DNA from: Escherichia coli
GTDB taxonomy: Bacteria; Pseudomonadota; Gammaproteobacteria; Enterobacterales; Enterobacteriaceae
Strand: one strand, 5' to 3'
NCBI RefSeq assembly: GCF_003018115.1
Contig: NZ_CP027457.1
Length of the DNA stretch: 64,000 nt
Each line of letters opens with the position of its first letter. Positions within the stretch are counted from its first letter, which is position 1. A program made the position numbers and the translations under genes. The notes under the pieces were generated by a model. The model had not been told where the DNA came from, did not search any database, and saw only the letters and a program-made list of their open reading frames with translations. Below, one piece after another: positions 1,985 to 54,068 of this stretch.

Positions 1985-2689
1985 TTAACGGCGGTTGCCG
2001 AAGATCCGCAGCAACATCAGGAACAGGTTGATGAAATCGAGATACAGCGTTAATGCGCCAAGAATGGAATATTTGCGCAGGTTCGACGTGTCGCGGGTAT
2101 CTATCTGCTCACCCATATTTTTCAGTTTCTGGGTGTCATACGCCGTCAATCCGACAAAGACAATCACGCCGATGTAGGTGACTGCCCACATCAACGCTTC
2201 GCTTTTCAGCCAGAAGTTGACCAGCGATGCCAACACAATGCCGATTAACGCCATAAACAGCATATTACCAAAGCCGCTTAGATCGCGCTTCGTGGTGTAA
2301 CCATACAGGCTCATTGCGCCGAACATCCCGGCAGTAACGACGAAAGTACTGGCGATAGAAGCAGCGGTATAGACAATGAAAATACTGGAAAGCGTAAGAC
2401 CCGTCAGCGCCGAATAAAGCATAAAGAGCATCGTCGTTACACCTGCGCTCAGCTTTTGAATCATCGCTGATAACACAATAACCAATGCTAATTGCGCGAT
2501 GATCAGACCGATTAAAAAGACACGGTTAGTGAACAACAGCTCCATCACGGCCGCGGAATTAGCCGCATACCAGGCAACAAATGCGGTCAGCAACAAGCCA
2601 ACGGTCATCCAGCCATAGACTTGCGCCATATAAGTTTGCAAGCCAGCCCGGGGTTGTACGATTGAATCAGAACGTGGGAATCTGTCCAT
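1985..2689 (-). CDS. ybhL: BAX inhibitor-1 family inner membrane protein YbhL
   Basis: Translation MDRFPRSDSIVQPRAGLQTYMAQVYGWMTVGLL..., about 234 aa, 7-TM BI-1 pattern. Confidence 0.85.
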   Translation of the reverse strand: MDRFPRSDSIVQPRAGLQTYMAQVYGWMTVGLLLTAFVAWYAANSAAVMELLFTNRVFLIGLIIAQLALVIVLSAMIQKLSAGVTTMLFMLYSALTGLTLSSIFIVYTAASIASTFVVTAGMFGAMSLYGYTTKRDLSGFGNMLFMALIGIVLASLVNFWLKSEALMWAVTYIGVIVFVGLTAYDTQKLKNMGEQIDTRDTSNLRKYSILGALTLYLDFINLFLMLLRIFGNRR

Positions 2690-2825
2690 GACGATCTCCT
2701 GAAGATATAAGGAATATCTTAAGGATACTGCAAAATGATGAGGCTGTGCATCGACGCAGCGTAAACGCATGTACTGAGCGGTGAAATTGCCGGACGCAGC
2801 GGTGCCTTATCCGGCTAACAAAAAA

Positions 2826-3278
2826 CTACCAGCGTTTTGCTGCCTGCTGATCGCTCTCCCGAGCTTCAACCCAGCGGTCGCCTTCAGGCGTGGCTTCGCG
2901 CTTCCAGAACGGTGCGCGGGTTTTGAGATAATCCATAATAAACTGCCCGGCTTCAAACGCACTGCTGCGATGCGCACTGGTGACACCGACAAAAACAATT
3001 TCATCGCCCGGCCATAATTCCCCGATGCGGTGAATCACCGTGACGCGCCCCAGCGGCCAGCGGTTACGCGCTTCATCGACAATTTCTGCCAGTGCTTTTT
3101 CAGTCATCCCCGGATAGTGTTCGAGGGTTAATGCTTTGACGCTGTCGCCCAGGTTATGGTTGCGCACCTTACCAGTAAAGGTGACTACCGCACCGTCTTC
3201 GTCACGCTCCGCCAGCCACGGGTACTCTTCTCCTACGCTGAACGGCTGCGGACCAACAACAATTTTGGTTTCTGCCAT
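2826..3278 (-). CDS. moaE: Molybdopterin synthase catalytic subunit MoaE
   Basis: 150-aa translation MAETKIVVGPQPFSVGEEYPWL...; operon order moaA-E. Confidence 0.92.
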   Translation of the reverse strand: MAETKIVVGPQPFSVGEEYPWLAERDEDGAVVTFTGKVRNHNLGDSVKALTLEHYPGMTEKALAEIVDEARNRWPLGRVTVIHRIGELWPGDEIVFVGVTSAHRSSAFEAGQFIMDYLKTRAPFWKREATPEGDRWVEARESDQQAAKRW

Positions 3279-3279
3279 C

Positions 3280-3525
3280 TTAACCTCCGGTTACCGGCGG
3301 GAAGAAAGCTACTTCGTCGCCGTCAGTCAGCGGATGGTCAAAACTCACCAGCGTCTGGTTGACGGCAGCCAGTAATTTGCCATCTTCCAGCGCCAGCGCC
3401 CAGCGATCGCTCTGCGCAGCCAGGTGCTGGCGTAACGCTTCAACGGTTGGGAAATCCGCAGCCACTTCGGTTGCATCTGTTCCTACCAACTCGCGCACCT
3501 GGGCGAAAAAAAGAACTTTAATCAT
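3280..3525 (-). CDS. moaD: Molybdopterin synthase sulfur carrier subunit MoaD
   Basis: 81-aa translation [17 protein letters not shown]... ending in GG. Confidence 0.9.
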
Positions 3526-4003
3526 CCGCTTCCACCTTAAAGTCACCTGACTTGCCGCCGCTCTTCGCCAGCAAACGTACCGGACCAATCACCATATCTT
3601 TTTGCACCGCTTTGCACATGTCATAAATGGTCAGCGCCGCCACGGAGGCCGCGGTTAACGCTTCCATTTCGACACCGGTTTTCCCGGTCAGGCGGCATAA
3701 GGTTTCTATACGCACCCGATTGTGCTCCGGCTCGGCCTGTAAATTGACTTCAACTTTGCTGAGCATCAGCGGATGACACAGCGGGATCAGATCCCAGGTG
3801 CGTTTTGCCGCCTGAATACCGGCAATACGCGCAGTGGCAAATACGTCGCCTTTGTGGTGGCGACCATCAATAATCATCGCCAGCGTCTCGCTGCGCATGG
3901 TGACAAAGGCTTCCACCCGCGCTTCACGCACGGTTTCCGCTTTGGCGGAGACATCCACCATGTGCGCTTCGCCAGCGGCGTTGATATGGGTCAGTTGCGA
4001 CAT
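3518..4003 (-). CDS. moaC: Cyclic pyranopterin monophosphate synthase MoaC
   Basis: 161-aa translation [21 protein letters not shown]... Confidence 0.92.
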
Positions 4004-4005
4004 AC

Positions 4006-4518
4006 TTATTTCTTCAAATGTGGATGGAAATTACACGGACGCGTACGGGCATCCAGCTGCGGCGCGATGATATTTTCCCATGCGGTACGGCACGCTTTGG
4101 TCGAACCCGGCATGGCGAAAATCAGCGTTTTGTTAGCGACGCCCGCTACCGCACGAGATTGCAACGTGGAAGTGCCAATCTCTTCAAACGACAACATACG
4201 GAACACTTCACCAAAACCTTCAACTTCACGGTCGAACAACGGCAGCAATGCTTCGGGAGCCTGATCACCTTCCGTCAGGCCAGTCCCCCCCGTAATCAAC
4301 ACCACTTGTACATCGTCGCTGGCGATCCACGCAGATACCTGAGCGCGAATAGCGTAGCGGTTTTCTTTCACAATGGCTTTATCGACAACGTGATGGCCCG
4401 CTTCTTGCGCCGAATCGCGCAAATAGTGACCGGAGGTATCGTCTTCTTCACCGCGACGATTAGAAACCGTAAGAATAGCAATACGGGTCGGGATAAATTC
4501 AGTGCTTACCTGACTCAT
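4006..4518 (-). CDS. moaB: Molybdenum cofactor biosynthesis protein MoaB
   Basis: 170-aa translation [30 protein letters not shown]... Confidence 0.92.
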
Positions 4519-4539
4519 CTGATCTCTCCTTTTGACGTT

Positions 4540-5529
4540 TTAGCCGCCAATGTACGATAAGTTTTGCGTAATACCGGTGTTGTTTTGATGCAGGAAATGG
4601 GTCTGTTTCTTCTCCCGCAGCGCCGCTGAAATACGCGCTTCCAGCGCCTGTTGCTGGGCATCGTCTTCCAGCAGATCGCGCAGGTTAACACCGCCTTCAC
4701 CAAACAGGCAGAGATGGAGTTTACCAATGGAGGAAACGCGCAGACGGTTGCAAGTGGCGCAGAAGTCTTTTTCATACGGCATGATAAGGCCAATCTCTCC
4801 GGCGTAATCCGGATGACAAAAGACTTGCGCGGGACCGTCGCTGCGTTGACGTAATTGGTGGATCCAGCCGCGACGCAGTAGCTCGTCACGCAGAACCTGA
4901 CCAGAGATGTGATGCTTACGGAAGAGCTCGCTGCCCTCGCCCGTTTCCATCAGTTCGATGAAACGCAGCTGGATGGGACGATGCTGGATCCAGTTCAGAA
5001 AGGTGTCGAGCTGGTGATGATTAACATCACGCATCAGCACTGTATTGACTTTGACCTTCTCAAAACCGGCCTCAAATGCAGCATCAATCCCCGCCATGAC
5101 CTGGTTGAATTTATCCTGCCCGGTAATAGCGTGAAACTGGCGGGCGTCCAGACTGTCGACACTGACGTTGATGCCAGTAAGTCCAGCATCGCGCCAGTTC
5201 GCCACATCGCGTTCCAGACGGTAACCATTGGTGGTGACCGCAATCTGGCGGATAGCGTCGTTTTCTCGCACAGCGGCGATGATATCGGTAAAGTCGCGGC
5301 GTAAAGACGGCTCACCGCCTGTCAGGCGCACTTTTTCGGTGCCCAGACTGGCGAAGGCGCGCGTAACCCGGCGAATTTCATCGACGGTCAGAAAGCCTTT
5401 ATTGGTGACGCCGCTCGGTTTGTAGCCATCCGGCAGGCAGTAGGTGCAACGAAAGTTACACACATCGGTAATCGACAGGCGCAAGTAGTAAAACTTACGC
5501 GCAAATGCATCAGTCAGTTGTGAAGCCAT
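4540..5529 (-). CDS. moaA: GTP 3',8-cyclase MoaA (radical SAM)
   Basis: Translation from [31 protein letters not shown] (CxxxCxxC radical SAM motif); 329 aa. Confidence 0.92.
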
Positions 5530-44214: not shown

Positions 44215-44931
44215 ATGGAAAATAAAAAATCACTGACGACAGAACAGCTCGAAGACGCTAAGCGGCTTAAGGCTTTGTATGAGTCAAAAAAGAAAGAATT
44301 GGGAATAACCCAATACTCAATCGCTGATGAACTGGGTATCACCCAAGGAGCGGTAGGGCATTATCTTAATGGCAGAAACGCGCTAAACGTTGAGGTCGCA
44401 TCTGGTTTTGCACGTTTGTTGCAAGTCTCAATTGCTGATTTTAGCCAGTCAATTGCTGCCAAGGTTGCAGAACAGGCAGAAAGCCTTAAGAGCGATGCCA
44501 ACGTAAGGTATGCAGGGGAATACAGAGCAGGAAAGAGGTATCCGGTGTTAAGCAGTATCCAGGCTGGCTCGTGGTGTGAAGCATGCGAACCATACACCAT
44601 TAAAGACATAGATGTTTGGCTTGAGTCTGACGCGCATATTCAAGGTAATGCGTTCTGGCTTAAAGTGGAAGGTGATTCAATGACGGCACCGGTTGGGTTA
44701 AGCATTCCAGAGGGAACATTCGTTCTTTTCGATACCGGAAGGGAGGCGATCAACGGCAGCTTGGTCATAGCAAAACTTTCTGACTCTAACGAAGCAACAT
44801 TCAAGAAGCTGATAATCGACGGCGGAAATAAATACCTCAAGGGACTTAATCCTGCATGGCCTCTCGTGCCAATCAATGGAAACTGCAAGATTATAGGCGT
44901 TGCAATTGAGACAAAACTAAGGCTGGTTTGA
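44215..44931 (+). CDS. cI: CI repressor (HTH plus LexA-like S24 autocleavage domain)
   Basis: 238 aa; ...LTTEQLEDAKRLKALYESKKKELGITQYSIADELG... and C-terminal ...AFWLKVEGDSMTAP... resemble lambda CI. Confidence 0.9.
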   Translation: MENKKSLTTEQLEDAKRLKALYESKKKELGITQYSIADELGITQGAVGHYLNGRNALNVEVASGFARLLQVSIADFSQSIAAKVAEQAESLKSDANVRYAGEYRAGKRYPVLSSIQAGSWCEACEPYTIKDIDVWLESDAHIQGNAFWLKVEGDSMTAPVGLSIPEGTFVLFDTGREAINGSLVIAKLSDSNEATFKKLIIDGGNKYLKGLNPAWPLVPINGNCKIIGVAIETKLRLV

Positions 44932-45684: not shown

Positions 45685-45990
45685 ATGACAGTAGTCATTA
45701 CATATCTGGCTGACGATAACGCCAGAAATCGCCGCAGAGCACGCAGACAGGCTCAACGTGAACAGGCAATGCAAGAGCAGCGACTGGCGCGAAAAATTGC
45801 GCTAAAGCTCTCTGGTTGCGTCAGGGCAGACAAAGCAGCATCACTCGGAAGCCTTCGCTGCCAGAAGGCAGAAGAAGTCGAGCGTAAACAGAACCGTATT
45901 TACTACCGCAAGCCACGCAGTGAAATGGGTGTGACATGCTCAGGCCGCCAGAAGCAACGCGGAAAATCAATTCCAGCTTATTACGATTGA
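45685..45990 (+). CDS. N: N antitermination protein
   Basis: Arginine-rich motif NARNRRRARRQAQRE near the N-terminus; C-terminus ...GVTCSGRQKQRGKSIP resembles lambda N. Confidence 0.8.
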   Translation: MTVVITYLADDNARNRRRARRQAQREQAMQEQRLARKIALKLSGCVRADKAASLGSLRCQKAEEVERKQNRIYYRKPRSEMGVTCSGRQKQRGKSIPAYYD

Positions 45991-47533: not shown

Positions 47534-47845
47534 ATGATGATTCTGACTCTGAATGATAAGCGTGAAATATCGCAAATAATCGCAAGTTTTACTGATGAAG
47601 ATTACGAACGAATCAACAGTGAAGTTGATCGCCTCTGCAAACGTTGCGACCCAATAAGCGAAATGCTTCGATCATATAAACCAGATGAACACACTAAGGA
47701 CGCTATCGACTGGCTGGAAGATGATGACTGTAACTATCAGGAAAAAGCCGCTGAATGGTTCTGGGATGCAATAACCGAAAGAGTTAAGGCTGAATATGCC
47801 TTCGCAATATTCAAACGCAGACATATTTATGGAGAAGCTGCATGA
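47534..47845 (+). CDS. Hypothetical protein upstream of recT (possible Abc2/Kil-like function)
   Basis: 103-aa acidic ORF; position analogous to anti-RecBCD/kil genes in P22 and lambda; no direct motif evidence. Confidence 0.4.
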   Translation: MMILTLNDKREISQIIASFTDEDYERINSEVDRLCKRCDPISEMLRSYKPDEHTKDAIDWLEDDDCNYQEKAAEWFWDAITERVKAEYAFAIFKRRHIYGEAA

Positions 47846-48744
47846 GCAATATCGTTGAATTCGTTAAACAGCAAGAGCAGTTATTCTGCGGAGCATTGAC
47901 TGAACAGACGGTGACATGGGCTAAGGAAAGCCAGTTTGCAATTCAGTATTTCCAGAAAAACGATTACCTGGCTAAAACAGCACTGGCAAATCCAACCAGC
48001 GCACAGAACGCCATCATCAATGTTGCGGCGATCGGCATCACCTTAAACCCGGCCAGCAAACTGGCTTATCTGGTTCCTCGCGACGGCATGGTGTGCCTTG
48101 ATATCAGTTACATGGGATTACTTCATCTTGCGCAATCGACAGGATCAATTAAGTGGGGGCAATGCAAACTGGTGTACTCAAACGACACCTATGAATCAAA
48201 TGGCCTTGATTCAGCACCAACCCACAAATACAACGCATTTGGTGAGCGAGGCTCTATTGTTGGAGGTTATTGCACGGTTAAAACAGCAGATGGTGACTAC
48301 CTGACTGAAGAAATGAGTCTGGCAGAAATTAAAGCTGTGGAAGCAACGAGCAAGGCAAAGAATGGACCGTGGAAAACATTCTGGGAAGAGATGGCGCGTA
48401 AAACAATAGTTAAACGCGCCAGCAAATACTGGCCTAAAGCCCAGCGACTGGATAATGCCATTCACCTGCTTAACGAAGATGAAGGTGTGCATCAGGAACC
48501 AGTTATGCCGCACAAATCAGAGGAAGATATCCGCGAAGATGAACGGAAACGCCAGCAGGAAATAATGGATAAAGCACAACTTCTTTGCGATGAAATGTCT
48601 CAGGCAGAAAACATGGATGATTTGAAGCGATATTTTGCAGAAGCATATCGCCTGACATCTGGAATGAAATTGCAGCAGAACGTACAAGCCATTTACATAG
48701 AATGCAAAGCGAAACTGGAGGTTGCCAGTGAGCAAACTGTATGA
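47842..48744 (+). CDS. recT: RecT-family single-strand annealing protein
   Basis: 300 aa; ...NGPWKTFWEEMARKTIVKRASKYWP... matches the RecT family signature region. Confidence 0.8.
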   Translation: MSNIVEFVKQQEQLFCGALTEQTVTWAKESQFAIQYFQKNDYLAKTALANPTSAQNAIINVAAIGITLNPASKLAYLVPRDGMVCLDISYMGLLHLAQSTGSIKWGQCKLVYSNDTYESNGLDSAPTHKYNAFGERGSIVGGYCTVKTADGDYLTEEMSLAEIKAVEATSKAKNGPWKTFWEEMARKTIVKRASKYWPKAQRLDNAIHLLNEDEGVHQEPVMPHKSEEDIREDERKRQQEIMDKAQLLCDEMSQAENMDDLKRYFAEAYRLTSGMKLQQNVQAIYIECKAKLEVASEQTV

Positions 48745-49210
48745 AATAGCCAATGAATACGCAAAGCTGATGGATTCAGATTTAGAGCCAGAGATGATTG
48801 CTGACACAATAGAAGGCATGGAAGGAGAATTTACCGATAAAATAGAGCAACTTCTCGCCATTATTAAAAATGAATCTGGTTATGCTGAACGCCTCAAGGA
48901 AGAGGCAAAGTCACTAAATGAGAGAGCCGCAGTAATTCAAAATAAGATTGACAGCATTATGGCGTATATAGCGTCATCGCTTGAAATGGTTGGCAAGAAA
49001 AAGATTCGAGCAGGTATTCACCAGGTAACAATCCGCAAACCGTCAGAAACTGTAGAAATCATCGACTCAAGCGCCCTTCCTCCTGAATACGTTGAATTTG
49101 AAACGACAATTAAAGCCGACAAACTGGCAATCAAACACCAACTAAAAGCAGGAATAAATATCCCCGGCGCTCAACTCAAAGTTGGGAAACCTTCACTTCT
49201 TATCAAATAA
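48728..49210 (+). CDS. Siphovirus Gp157-like protein
   Basis: About 160 aa, (M)SKLYEIANEYAKL... coiled-coil-rich; typical partner of recT modules; probable GTG start. Confidence 0.45.
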   Translation: MSKLYEIANEYAKLMDSDLEPEMIADTIEGMEGEFTDKIEQLLAIIKNESGYAERLKEEAKSLNERAAVIQNKIDSIMAYIASSLEMVGKKKIRAGIHQVTIRKPSETVEIIDSSALPPEYVEFETTIKADKLAIKHQLKAGINIPGAQLKVGKPSLLIK

Positions 49211-49552: not shown

Positions 49553-49834
49553 ATGAAGCTAAACATAGACCTAGGCAAATATGTTATTACAGGAACCAAA
49601 CACGACCTGATTCTTAGTGAAAGAGGAATTATCAAAGAAGGTGAGAATGCAGGGAAAGAAACACTAAGCCGTATCGGTTATTACAGCAAGTTTGAGCATC
49701 TGGTTAAAGAGTTATGTAACCGTGAAATCCTGTTATCTCAGGCGCAGACGCTACAGGATATTCAGCAGCATATCGAAACTTTAGGTATGTCACTTAGCAT
49801 GGCTATTGACCAGTTCGTGGAGAGTAAATCATGA
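49553..49834 (+). CDS. Hypothetical protein
   Basis: 93-aa ORF. Confidence 0.4.
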
Positions 49835-49991
49835 GAGGACTTGCATACAATCCCGGCATTCTTCCGGCAGAAATGATTATTCGCCAACGCGTAAAACCAA
49901 TGCCATCGAGAGAGGAATTGCTTAAGAGAAATTCTTTTCCATCAGTGAATCAAAACAAATATCTGAATGCTATGTGGCGGAGTGGGAAGAA

Positions 49992-50468
49992 ATGAAACTA
50001 ATGTCACTAATTGAGATGGATGGTTTTCTGAAAGGTAAATGCATCCCACGAGATTTAAAGGTTAACGAAACAAACGCTGAATATCTGGTGCGTAAGTTCG
50101 GTGAGCTTGAATCAAAACTGGAAACGGCGTTGCGGGAGTGTCGTTCTGCTGGAATCACGATTGATAACCTTGAGGCTAAATGCGCGAAGATGGCTGCTGA
50201 AAATACCTCGCTTAAGCAATCTGAGAAGGAATTTAATGACTTTTGTCGTGAGGAGTTTAGCGAATGGGAAGATGATGTTACTGAACCCCAAGCCACCGAT
50301 GCTTTCCTGGCTGAAGTCCGGGCTAAGGCGTTTGATGACCTTTGCGCGGCGTTCGTTAAGCACGCGTCGGTGTCCGGGCTGGACGATGGCGACTGCGTTA
50401 CGGTGAAAGAGGCGACTGACGCCCTGCTGCATTGTGCGGAACAGCTTCACGAGGGAGTGCATTCATGA
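49992..50468 (+). CDS. Hypothetical coiled-coil protein
   Basis: About 158-aa ORF from [16 protein letters not shown]... Confidence 0.4.
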
Positions 50469-50707
50469 GCAACCTACTACCATGTCCATTCTGTGGCGGC
50501 GCAGCGCACGTTGCCAGCGAAGCAGATCACCCTGAATATGGCTCTGGCGGTCGATTCTATTTCGTTCGATGCGGTACGTGTCGCGCTCAATCTGGTAGCA
50601 AATATGCAGCGCCTGGAAATGACTGCGCGATTTTTTATTCAGAGGTTAGAGCAGAGTGGAATCAGCGAGCAAAGGAGGCAACCAGTGAGCGGAAAAAGAA
50701 TGACTAA
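50465..50707 (+). CDS. lar: Lar-family restriction alleviation protein
   Basis: Translation [16 protein letters not shown]...FVRCGTCRAQ... with the CPFCGG zinc motif typical of Lar. Confidence 0.65.
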   Translation: MSNLLPCPFCGGAAHVASEADHPEYGSGGRFYFVRCGTCRAQSGSKYAAPGNDCAIFYSEVRAEWNQRAKEATSERKKND

Positions 50708-50909
50708 CAGAGAGCTTGTTGATGCCGCCATTAAGCTTGCTGGTGATTTTTATTCAATGATGGGGTACACGCATCGCCCAGGCTTCAAATATTGGGAGTC
50801 TCCGCACCCGCAAGAGCAACTGGTATTTCAAATGGCCTGCCGTGCTTTTGAGGTTATTCGCGGTTCTGATGTGATGGACGCCGTTGCCGACTTGGAGGAT
50901 GAAGAGTGA
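50700..50909 (+). CDS. Hypothetical protein
   Basis: About 69-aa ORF MTNRELVDAAIKLAGDFYSMMGY...; start approximate. Confidence 0.35.
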   Translation: MTNRELVDAAIKLAGDFYSMMGYTHRPGFKYWESPHPQEQLVFQMACRAFEVIRGSDVMDAVADLEDEE

Positions 50910-51358
50910 GCAAGATTGACTATCAGGCACTGCGTGAAAAGGCAGAGAAAGCAACGTGTGGGGTGTGGTCGCTCGAATATGGAGAGGAGAGATTTGATGC
51001 TGATGATGCGCTAATTCATCGTGAAGTTGTTGGATATCTTCCCATTTGCAGAATTGAAGGAGCGCATCCAGAAAGCGGTTTCGATGAAGATTTCCAAATG
51101 GAACAGCAGGCCAATGCTGAATTCATCGCCGCAGCCAATCCAGCTACCGTGCTGGCGCTGCTGGATGAGCTGGAAGCCAAAGACAAGCGGATTGCTGACA
51201 TGGAGGCGCGGGAGGTTGTACTGCCGCGTGCGCACGATGTTCACCCATTAGGGCCGCAGGCGGCGAAAATTTTTTGTGAGTTTCACCGGAGTATCGTGAA
51301 CAGATGCGCCGATGAGATTCGCAAGGTTGGCATCAAAGTCAGCATCAAGGGGAATTAG
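50906..51358 (+). CDS. Ead/Ea22-like protein
   Basis: 150 aa; ...QANAEFIAAANPATVLALLDELEAKDKRIADMEA... typical of Ea22-family early proteins. Confidence 0.55.
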   Translation: MSKIDYQALREKAEKATCGVWSLEYGEERFDADDALIHREVVGYLPICRIEGAHPESGFDEDFQMEQQANAEFIAAANPATVLALLDELEAKDKRIADMEAREVVLPRAHDVHPLGPQAAKIFCEFHRSIVNRCADEIRKVGIKVSIKGN

Positions 51359-51362
51359 GGAT

Positions 51363-51896
51363 ATGGCTGAACTAACCAAAGAATGGCTGAAGCAAACTAT
51401 CGCTGAATACGAAGCCAATCGTGATGAATTACCGTTTGGACTGGATACCAACAGTGCCATTGGGCTTCAGGCGTTCAAGTTGGCGCTGGCATCGCTGGAA
51501 GCAGAGCCGGTGGCGTGGGAGGTAACCTTCACGCAAATTGACCGTGAATATAACACGTTCACTGGTATGTATCCTGACAAAGCAGAAGTCGAACGGTGGG
51601 TGCGTCTGCATAAAGCATGTAATTTTCGGGCAGATATAACACCGCTTTATACCGCCAAGCCAGTGCCGGTAACTCCGGATGGTTGGATAAGCTGTAGTGA
51701 GCGAATGCCGGAAAAGAATCAGAACGTGCTTATTTCGGTGAATTTCGATAGCTCTCTGGTTGAACCGCTAATATGCTCCGCACGCTATACAGGAAGCACA
51801 TTCCGGCGAGGGGAAGCAACGATTAAGCCGGGTAATGGTATTGAGCAGGCAACTCACTGGATGCCGCTACCAGAACCGCCGCAGGAGGCGAAATGA
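51363..51896 (+). CDS. DUF551 domain protein
   Basis: C-terminal ...WISCSERMPEKNQNVLI...THWMPLPEPP resembles DUF551. Confidence 0.5.
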   Translation: MAELTKEWLKQTIAEYEANRDELPFGLDTNSAIGLQAFKLALASLEAEPVAWEVTFTQIDREYNTFTGMYPDKAEVERWVRLHKACNFRADITPLYTAKPVPVTPDGWISCSERMPEKNQNVLISVNFDSSLVEPLICSARYTGSTFRRGEATIKPGNGIEQATHWMPLPEPPQEAK

Positions 51897-52153: not shown

Positions 52154-52247
52154 TGGCTAACCTGCAACTTGCCGTCAAAGGTGAATAACAATCCTCGCAC
52201 TCGCGGGGATTTCTTTTATCTGAACTCGCTATGGCGGGTTTTGTTTT

Positions 52248-52594: not shown

Positions 52595-52762
52595 ATGCAC
52601 TTCCGAGTCACAGGTGAATGGAATGGAGAGCCATTCAACAGAGTTATCGAAGCAGAGAACATCAATGACTGCTATGACCACTGGATGATATGGGCGCAGA
52701 TAGCACATGCAGAAGTAACCAATATTCGAATTGAAGAACTGAAAGAACACCAAGCCGCCTGA
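52595..52762 (+). CDS. Hypothetical small protein
   Basis: 55-aa ORF MHFRVTGEWNGEPF... with GGAG RBS. Confidence 0.35.
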   Translation: MHFRVTGEWNGEPFNRVIEAENINDCYDHWMIWAQIAHAEVTNIRIEELKEHQAA

Positions 52763-52801
52763 TGGCGGTTTTTTCTTGCGTGTAATTGCGGAGACTTTGC
52801 G

Positions 52802-53020
52802 ATGTACTTGACACTTCAGGAGTGGAACGCACGCCAGCGACGCCCAAGAAGCCTTGAAACAGTTCGTCGATGGGTGCGCGAATGCAGGATATTCCCACCA
52901 CCGGTTAAGGATGGAAGAGAGTATCTGTTCCACGAATCAGCGGTAAAGGTTGACTTAAATCGACCAGTAACAGGTAGCCTTTTGAAGAGGATCAGAAATG
53001 GGAAGAAGGCGAAGTCATGA
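52802..53020 (+). CDS. xis: Excisionase Xis (lambda-type)
   Basis: 72-aa translation MYLTLQEWNARQRRPRSLETVRRWVRECRIFPPPVKDGREYLFHESAVKVDL... matches lambda Xis. Confidence 0.95.
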   Translation: MYLTLQEWNARQRRPRSLETVRRWVRECRIFPPPVKDGREYLFHESAVKVDLNRPVTGSLLKRIRNGKKAKS

Positions 53021-54068
53021 GCGCCGGGATTTACCCCCTAACCTTTATATAAGAAACAATGGATATTACTGCTACAGGGACCCAAGGACGGGTAAAGAGT
53101 TCGGATTAGGCAGAGACAGGAGGATAGCAATCACTGAAGCTATACAGGCCAACATTGAGTTATTTTCAGGACACAAACACAAGCCTCTGACAGCGAGAAT
53201 CAACAGTGATAATTCTGTTACGTTACATTCATGGCTTGATCGCTACGAAAAAATCCTCGCCAGCAGAGGAATCAAGCAGAAGACACTCATAAATTACATG
53301 AGCAAAATTAAAGCAATAAGGAGGGGGCTGCCTGATGTTCCACTTGAAGACATCACCACAAAAGAAATTGCGGCAATGCTCAATGGATACATAGACGAGG
53401 GCAAGGCGGCATCAGCCAAGTTAATCAGATCAACACTGAGCGATGCATTCCGAGAGGCTATAGCTGAAGGCCATATAACAACAAACCCGGTCGCTGCTAC
53501 TCGCGCAGCAAAATCAGAGGTAAGGAGATCAAGGCTTACGGCTGACGAATACCTGAAAATTTATCAAGCAGCAGAATCATCACCATGTTGGTTAAGACTT
53601 GCAATGGAACTGGCTGTTGTTACCGGACAGCGAGTTGGTGATTTATGCGAAATGAAGTGGTCTGATATCGTAGATGGATATCTTTATGTCGAGCAAAGCA
53701 AAACAGGCGTAAAAATTGCCATCCCAACAGCATTGCATGTTGATGCTCTCGGAATATCAATGAAGGAAACACTTGATAAATGCAAAGAGATTCTTGGCGG
53801 AGAAACCATAATTGCATCTACTCGTCGTGAACCGCTTTCATCCGGCACAGTATCAAGGTATTTTATGCGCGCACGAAAAGCATCAGGTCTTTCCTTCGAA
53901 GGGGATCCGCCTACCTTTCACGAGTTGCGCAGTTTGTCTGCAAGACTCTATGAGAAGCAGATAAGCGATAAGTTTGCTCAACATCTTCTCGGGCATAAGT
54001 CGGACACCATGGCATCACAGTATCGTGATGACAGAGGCAGGGAGTGGGACAAAATTGAAATCAAATAA
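52998..54068 (+). CDS. int: Integrase Int (tyrosine recombinase, lambda-type)
   Basis: 356-aa translation MGRRRSHERRDLPPNLYIRNNGYYCYRDPRTGKEFGLGRDRRIAITEAIQANIELF... matches lambda Int. Confidence 0.97.
   Translation: MGRRRSHERRDLPPNLYIRNNGYYCYRDPRTGKEFGLGRDRRIAITEAIQANIELFSGHKHKPLTARINSDNSVTLHSWLDRYEKILASRGIKQKTLINYMSKIKAIRRGLPDVPLEDITTKEIAAMLNGYIDEGKAASAKLIRSTLSDAFREAIAEGHITTNPVAATRAAKSEVRRSRLTADEYLKIYQAAESSPCWLRLAMELAVVTGQRVGDLCEMKWSDIVDGYLYVEQSKTGVKIAIPTALHVDALGISMKETLDKCKEILGGETIIASTRREPLSSGTVSRYFMRARKASGLSFEGDPPTFHELRSLSARLYEKQISDKFAQHLLGHKSDTMASQYRDDRGREWDKIEIK

Follow-up and report, generated by a model that had tools for sequence, protein, structure and literature searches.

A Lar-family gene with a predicted Cys4 zinc ribbon in the int-proximal accessory segment of a P22-like prophage of Escherichia coli

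The subject of this analysis is a small gene of the Lar family, together with the accessory genes around it, in a 64,000-nucleotide (nt) stretch of Escherichia coli DNA (assembly GCF_003018115.1, contig NZ_CP027457.1) that is referred to here as the window. The region of interest, at 50465-51896, is the int-proximal mosaic accessory part of the early-left (pL) operon of a P22-like lambdoid prophage located at attB-lambda. Taken as a whole, we consider it quite probable that this is a pL accessory segment that carries a Lar-family Cys4 protein, the role of which would be understood by analogy with Lar of the Rac prophage. An earlier reading of the letters and open reading frames (ORFs) alone, hereafter the sequence-only reading, had described the region as a Lar-like restriction alleviation gene followed by Ea22-like and DUF551 genes, and had interpreted it as an anti-restriction and accessory cluster near int. 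That observation was confirmed, and the interpretation was partly supported. All three named genes were recovered on the plus strand at the positions it had given, both by reading of the ORFs and with Pfam.

The Lar-like gene encodes a protein of 80 amino acids (aa). Pfam PF14354 (Lar_restr_allev) matched this protein with 38.4 bits against a cutoff of 28.6 (E-value 1.5e-9), and residues 3-69 were aligned with positions 2-58 of the 58-position model. The PHROGs database agreed with the Pfam assignments, phrog_599 matching the Lar-like protein with an E-value of 1e-12. In addition, the protein is 100% identical to RefSeq entry WP_072019243.1, 'Lar family restriction alleviation protein'. The Pfam E-values and the complete identity to an annotated RefSeq protein exclude a chance match. 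As had been noticed from the letters alone, the protein has a CPFCG motif and a second pair of cysteines, the latter within the segment RCGTCRAQ, and the segment EWNQR is found near its C-terminus; the CxxC pairs and the W-N-x-R motif are shared with RalR, the Lar protein of Rac. When 59 sequences were aligned, Rac RalR among them, the residues C7, C10, C36, C39, W65 and R68 were invariant, P8, F9, G11, G29, C54 and R62 were nearly invariant, and N66 was conserved in 88%. The pattern of two CxxC pairs was present in 157 of 162 relatives, and a HMMER search at an E-value of 1e-3 or below retrieved 338 representative clusters.

A confident AlphaFold2 model of the Lar-like protein (predicted local distance difference test score, pLDDT, 87.6; predicted template modelling score, pTM, 0.70) displayed strands at residues 14-20, 30-36 and 46-48 and a helix at residues 55-66. 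In this model the N-terminal CxxC lies ahead of the first hairpin and the other one where strand 2 ends, an arrangement known from zinc ribbons. Foldseek matches to the model were weak (E-values of at least 0.24), with Cys4 zinc modules, including NrdR, RPA12, Mis18-Yippee and cereblon, in all of the top places; a sequence search of the PDB retrieved no solved relative. The sequence-only reading had made its case depend on the prediction of a zinc-ribbon fold, and the model is compatible with one. We infer that the protein is zinc-ribbon-like, with a probable zinc site formed by the four cysteines of its two CxxC knuckles, and that the W-N-x-R motif resides on the helix that comes next.

On the plus strand of the window, the genes follow the order repressor, N-like protein, RecT, Gp157, DUF2737, accessory cluster, xis and int, while the minus strand carries cII, the replication genes and P22-like morphogenesis genes. 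The accessory segment at this place is known as the 'ea' region in P22 and as the 'exo-xis' region in lambda. The gene order upholds the proposed location at the int-proximal end of the early operon, which is also the position of lar in Rac. The description 'near int' was roughly right, since it must be added that three small ORFs and xis lie between the DUF551 gene and int. Likewise, the Ea22-like and DUF551 genes are both located downstream of the Lar-like gene, but a gene of 69 aa that had not been listed intervenes. The Lar-like ORF does overlap its neighbours as claimed, sharing an ATGA (50465-50468) with the upstream 158-aa gene and the 8-nt sequence ATGACTAA (50700-50707) with the 69-aa gene. 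The 69-aa and Ead genes are joined by a GTGA overlap at 50906-50909, and the DUF551 gene and the 86-aa gene by an ATGA overlap at 51893-51896. Such overlapping start and stop codons in most of the genes are consistent with translational coupling. Good Shine-Dalgarno sequences were present upstream of the Lar-like gene (GAGGGAG) and of the GTG start of the Ead gene (GGAGGA).

The Lar-like gene would be transcribed from pL under N antitermination along with the neighbouring accessory genes, and its product would be made early after infection or induction. By analogy with Rac Lar, the most likely role of this protein would be to act on a resident type IA restriction-modification (R-M) complex of the EcoKI class, such that de novo methylation would be favoured over cleavage of unmodified phage DNA, resulting in restriction alleviation and modification enhancement. 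Both of these effects were attributed to Rac Lar by King & Murray 1995, as cited in PMC3177214. According to the same publication, EcoKI restriction is enhanced once Lar is removed from E. coli, and Lar and the lambda protein Ral are believed to boost EcoKI de novo methylation through a mechanism that is unknown. Rac Lar/RalR (E. coli K-12 b1348, 64 aa) belongs to PF14354 and TIGR03655 and has CPFCG, CxxC and W-N-x-R in common with the window protein, all of them invariant. Rac also resembles the window in having a leftward early operon near recombination genes and xis/int, with the order int-xis-rcbA-ralR-recT, and in the overlap of 8 nt between the 3' end of ralR and a downstream 69-aa ORF (ydaC in Rac). 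In contrast to the 64-aa RalR, the 80-aa window protein has insertions between the knuckles and an extra YAxxGNDC(P)xxY segment with a fifth cysteine. Lambda Ral (66 aa) is the presumed functional analogue; it is made early from the pL operon, relieves restriction by EcoKI and enhances modification (PMC12707154, PMC3177214). However, ral is located near N in lambda, whereas the Lar-like gene of the window is located near int, and Ral and the Lar-like protein had no detectable sequence similarity (BLASTP E-value 6.0).

Gene structure, family membership, metal-ligand pattern, predicted fold and operon position of the Lar-like gene can be regarded as demonstrated, and it is at the level of function that several findings weigh against the analogy. 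The identity to Rac Lar/RalR was 26% over 42 aa by BLASTP and 24% in the alignment, and the NCBIfam model TIGR03655 (anti_R_Lar) scored 29.6 bits against a cutoff of 39.6 (E-value 6e-7); the Prokaryotic Genome Annotation Pipeline (PGAP) names the identical protein 'Lar family' despite this score below the cutoff. The subfamily has a conserved segment, Y-A-x-x-G-N-D-C-P-x-x-Y, that brings in the fifth, near-invariant cysteine and that RalR lacks; within it, 51 of the 59 aligned sequences have a proline at the position that is A55 in the window protein. Moreover, C-terminal extensions of more than 40 aa were found in 97 of the 162 relatives, no tested member of the Lar-like subfamily was found in the searched literature, and the R-M content of the host lies outside the window. 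Lastly, the founding member is itself disputed, RalR having been described as a non-specific DNase toxin with the small RNA (sRNA) antitoxin RalA that 'does not inhibit restriction modification' (PMC4041452). The match to Rac Lar claimed in the sequence-only reading therefore holds for family and motifs but is remote, at 24-26% identity and below the TIGR03655 cutoff, and its statement that Rac Lar protects DNA from type I restriction agrees with PMC3177214 but is disputed by PMC4041452. Because of the low identity to Rac Lar, the TIGR03655 score, the missing similarity to lambda Ral and the split literature on the founder, we regard the functional assignment of the Lar-like protein as weak. 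Judged by analogy, alleviation of type I restriction by this particular protein is possible rather than probable.

Alternatively, the Lar-like protein could be a small module with a zinc ribbon that targets something other than type I restriction enzymes, in which case the name 'restriction alleviation' would have been carried over from a distant relative; we consider this possible, though short of probable. Such a module could be a DNA- or protein-binding adaptor directed against another host system, or a lysis-lysogeny regulator like other exo-xis genes. The low identity to Rac Lar and the failed TIGR03655 cutoff point in this direction, as do the GNDC(P) motif and the fifth conserved cysteine, which are specific to the Lar-like subfamily. 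Further support comes from the architecture of the relatives. The domain is N-terminal in 148 of the 162, most of which are longer proteins, and the long C-terminal extensions in 97 of them suggest that the module is portable and not a small effector of fixed form. When 98 longer relatives were scanned with Pfam, DUF551 was found in two and cross-matches of the Ogr_Delta zinc-finger type in five, with almost nothing else. The homologues in Kluyvera (in the nin region) and Serratia (in the left operon) adjoin unrelated genes, and the 'Lar-like' label has demonstrably been over-propagated, as in the DUF551 protein of phage Louie described below. Judging from these comparisons, the Lar domain behaves as a portable phage accessory module that is mobile between accessory hot-spots. 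Nevertheless, the CPFCG, CxxC and W-N-x-R core is strictly common to the window protein and Rac Lar, and the operon position is the same as that of lar in Rac. Positive evidence for another target was not obtained, PADLOC giving no match and the fold search no informative one. In a more specific version, which strikes us as unlikely, the subfamily would not consist of EcoKI restriction-alleviation factors but of a distinct, portable zinc-ribbon targeting domain that is directed against another host system and that phages recombine with varied C-terminal effectors, much as with the N-terminal module of Ead/Ea22. In a further alternative, the product of the Lar-like gene would be a DNase toxin akin to RalR that belongs to a type I toxin-antitoxin pair and is curbed by an antisense or trans-acting sRNA from the downstream gene. 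Rac RalR has been reported as a non-specific endonuclease neutralised by RalA, a 179-nt sRNA that is antisense to the downstream ORF ydaC/rcbA and acts on RalR via a 16-nt complementarity (PMC4041452), and the 8-nt overlap of the 69-aa ORF with the 3' end of the Lar-like gene is exactly that of ydaC with ralR. However, a search for inverted repeats between the Lar-like gene and the downstream 800 nt returned none of at least 12 nt, and hence none of 16 nt; the best repeat involving the gene had 11 nt (91%) and was 964 nt away. Scanning of 50700-50909 for promoters and terminators revealed no promoter-like site and no convincing terminator on the minus strand, an Rfam scan of 44-55 kb gave no match, and the downstream 69-aa ORF is unrelated to Rac RcbA/YdaC. 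The residues do not fit either. Substitution of K52 abolished DNA cleavage by RalR, and mutation at six RalR positions reduces toxicity (PMC4041452), yet the equivalent of K52 is Q67, at a variable position where family members have T, R, Q, N or K. The RalR residues C14, T37, Y39, R49, N51 and K52 correspond to G12, S43, S45, E64, N66 and Q67, and of these only the pairs T37/S43 and N51/N66 are conserved or conservative. With no repeat, no antisense signals, no Rfam match, no kinship to RcbA and K52 replaced by Q67, we consider the toxin explanation very unlikely for this gene.

The reality of the Lar-like gene itself had to be weighed against a 138-aa ORF in another frame (50493-50909, plus strand), which would be the true coding sequence if older phage records were followed. 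This ORF is open and matched phrog_4132 over nearly its full length with 230 bits, and in the records of phages HK106 and ST104 a long ORF is annotated in this frame and the Lar gene is omitted (at 3094-4104 and 2574-3365 of the stretches examined). The frame is, however, open only in near-identical copies from E. coli and Salmonella, and it is interrupted by two stops in the Kluyvera homologue and by four in the Serratia homologue. The Lar frame, in contrast, is open and conserved in both of these homologues, and across the 338 representative clusters it is conserved down to about 40-50% identity with invariant cysteines. PGAP annotates the Lar gene and a separate 69-aa gene here. The phrog_4132 match is explained by mis-annotated, out-of-frame members that were built into the profile. 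Since the alternative frame contains stops where the Lar frame is intact, we conclude that the Lar gene is real and that the 138-aa ORF is spurious; that it should be the coding sequence after all is extremely improbable, and it was rejected as a gene.

The separate 69-aa gene corresponds in position to the gene for WP_001350881.1 in E. coli CAVp367, and its product had no Pfam, NCBIfam or PADLOC match. A different kind of annotation error was observed in Escherichia phage Louie, where the 262-aa product named 'Lar-like restriction alleviation protein' belongs to the DUF551 proteins and lacks any pair of cysteines (3544-4332 of the stretch examined). The source of this label is probably the heterogeneous phrog_599, through which the Lar-like name would have spread to proteins without the domain. 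These cases serve as a caution in three respects: the basis of the 'Lar / restriction alleviation' label is a single protein that is distant and functionally disputed, the label has spread to proteins without the domain, and older phage records hide the Lar gene under a spurious overlapping ORF.

The two larger genes downstream were assigned with Pfam as well. The 150-aa protein matched PF13935 (Ead_Ea22) with 79.7 bits against a cutoff of 27 (E-value 4e-22), and the match covered only positions 1-88 of the 139-position model, while phrog_1667 covered the full protein. Only residues 1-33 could be aligned with lambda Ea22, 16 of the 33 being identical (48%). The term 'Ea22-like' used in the sequence-only reading is thus apt for the N-terminal module and not for the rest. 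The protein appears to consist of this module, a short helical region and a C-terminus of its own. The C-terminal domain of lambda Ea22, a dimeric alpha/beta fold solved by nuclear magnetic resonance (PMC10834534), was absent by alignment, and no PDB sequence match was found for the Ead protein. What the window protein shares with lambda Ea22 and P22 Ead (PF13935) is the N-terminal MSxIxxQALREx AExA and the helical region that follows, as well as the location between the recombination genes and xis and the combination of a conserved N-terminus with a variable C-terminus (PMC10834534). Ea22 of lambda and of Phi24B has been reported as pro-lysogenic (PMC7093339; for lambda Ea22 also PMC10834534), a phenotype that cannot be transferred with confidence to the Ead protein of the window.

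The DUF551 protein matched PF04448 with 80.4 bits against a cutoff of 22 (E-value 1.8e-22), the full model (1-68) lying at the C-terminus (residues 110-177 of the scanned product). Translation likely starts at the ATG at 51363, which gives 177 aa, rather than at the ATG at 51312. Relatives were found in more than 7,500 clusters, the best being 97% identical, and all were named 'DUF551 domain-containing protein'. An AlphaFold2 model (pLDDT 82.4) was made up of three parts, namely a helical hairpin at the N-terminus, a small alpha/beta domain and, at the C-terminus, the DUF551 domain as an all-beta fold. A fold search with the whole model was dominated by matches to the N-terminal hairpin and was uninformative on the DUF551 domain, a PDB sequence search gave no match, and no assigned function for DUF551 was found in the searched literature. 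In Ea22_V2 of Stx phages and in proteins of the HK106 gp32 type, an Ead N-terminus and a DUF551 C-terminus are fused in one protein (PMC10834534), and YfdS of E. coli CPS-53 is a further DUF551 protein among the closest known ones. The C-terminal PVTPDGWISCSERMPE...HWMPLPEPPQEAK sequence of the window DUF551 protein is nearly identical to that of the HK106 protein. In the window, by contrast, the Ead and DUF551 modules reside on two adjacent genes, each with extra sequence of its own, which match positions 1-109 and 115-282 of phrog_60, respectively. A single Ead-DUF551 fusion gene split by a frameshift was considered and rejected: phrog_1667 spans the whole 150 aa of the Ead protein, which is therefore not a frameshifted fragment, and many genomes have this pair of separate genes in their PGAP annotation.

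When all eight small proteins were scanned with PADLOC, no defence system was recognised. Since only the Lar gene bears an anti-restriction name and no such evidence was obtained for the Ead/Ea22 or DUF551 genes, the label 'anti-restriction cluster' proved unjustified. The gene with the Ead/Ea22 module and the DUF551 gene are accessory modules in their own right, often reshuffled, and neither demonstrably belongs to an anti-restriction unit.

The distribution of these genes is that of a mosaic. In E. coli CAVp367 the same order of upstream gene, Lar gene, 69-aa gene and Ead gene was found at a DNA identity of 99.5%; the match ends within the Ead gene, and other cargo lies beyond this point (a MazZ-like pyrophosphohydrolase and ASCH). 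The Lar gene was present with at least 80% coverage in 46 of 5,426 complete E. coli genomes, and it occurs in phages HK106, ST104, UAB_Phi20 and HF4s as well. Among the matches listed, it carries the same PGAP Lar family name and in several cases lies beside ead/Ea22-like genes. The Ead-DUF551 pair was found at 94-98% identity in many genomes, and the whole 1.5-kb accessory block in none of the complete E. coli genomes searched, which is normal mosaicism for these regions. The region is very likely an ordinary, already annotated Lar-family/Ead/DUF551 accessory block. It presents no new kind of element: the block is a common mosaic in P22-like and lambdoid prophages of E. coli and Salmonella, the Lar-like protein has an exact counterpart among the named RefSeq entries, and the region carries little weight as a discovery. 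Farther afield, a Lar-like homologue in a prophage of Kluyvera sp. Nf5 is situated in the nin region after DnaB and beside an Ead_Ea22 gene (4001-5014 of the stretch examined), and one in a Serratia prophage precedes an HNH gene in the left operon (4001-4252 of the stretch examined).

The features of the operon are collected in Table 1.

Table 1. Plus-strand genes of the early-left operon and accessory segment in the window, with the matches on which their assignment is based
Feature	Position	Strand	Remarks
cI-like S24/HTH repressor	44215-44931	+	
N-like arginine-rich protein	45685-45990	+	Weak PF25694 match
RecT	47842-48744	+	
Gp157	48722-49210	+	
DUF2737	49831-49995	+	
Accessory gene, 158 aa	49992-50468	+	phrog_614; starts at ATG 49992
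Lar-like gene, 80 aa	50465-50707	+	PF14354; ATG 50465 to TAA 50707
69-aa gene	50700-50909	+	Matches C-terminal part of phrog_4132; absent from the list of the sequence-only reading
Ead/Ea22-family gene, 150 aa	50906-51358	+	GTG start; PF13935
DUF551 gene, 177 aa	51363-51896	+	PF04448
Accessory gene, 86 aa	51893-52153	+	phrog_2814, function unknown; ATGA overlap with DUF551 gene
Accessory gene, 103 aa	52248-52559	+	phrog_3680; CxxC...CxxC segment
Homologue of lambda orf55 (lambdap35), 60 aa	52580-52762	+	98% identical
xis, lambda Xis-type excisionase	52802-53020	+	PF07825, 139 bits
int, lambda-type tyrosine integrase	52998-54068	+	PF00589 and PF09003

The start codon of the 158-aa gene upstream of the Lar-like gene overlaps the stop codon of the DUF2737 gene as ATGA, and its homologue in E. 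coli CAVp367 is annotated with the equivalent start. A Pfam scan of the 158-aa product gave no match; the homologue in strain SRY149 is nevertheless named 'ead/Ea22-like' by PGAP. In comparison with phrog_368, the C-terminal part of the 158-aa gene product corresponds to positions 91-238 and the product of the true Ead gene to positions 1-88. These split matches look like further evidence for the shuffling of modules among these genes.

The whole P22-like prophage of ~39 kb is contained in the window (~14.7-54.1 kb), with ORFs of the size of portal, terminase and tailspike genes on the minus strand. Beyond int, the prophage end abuts ybhC, which is followed by ybhJ, and both genes are 100% identical to those of several E. 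coli chromosomes; the ybhC-ybhJ flank was 100% identical to that of O169:H41 enterotoxigenic E. coli chromosomes. Terminator-like sites numbered 7 in the region, compared with 3.3 in shuffled sequences. Two tandem terminator-like hairpins with T-runs were located at 52190-52241, in the 94 nt that separate the 86-aa ORF from the 103-aa ORF, and a GC-rich hairpin readable on both strands was located at 52752-52771, just upstream of xis. In the 103-aa ORF, the segment CSLCGG...CLNC weakly resembles the N-terminal zinc finger of ClpX (E-value ~2e-3, far below the cutoff), and this product may be a second small zinc-binding accessory protein of the same operon.

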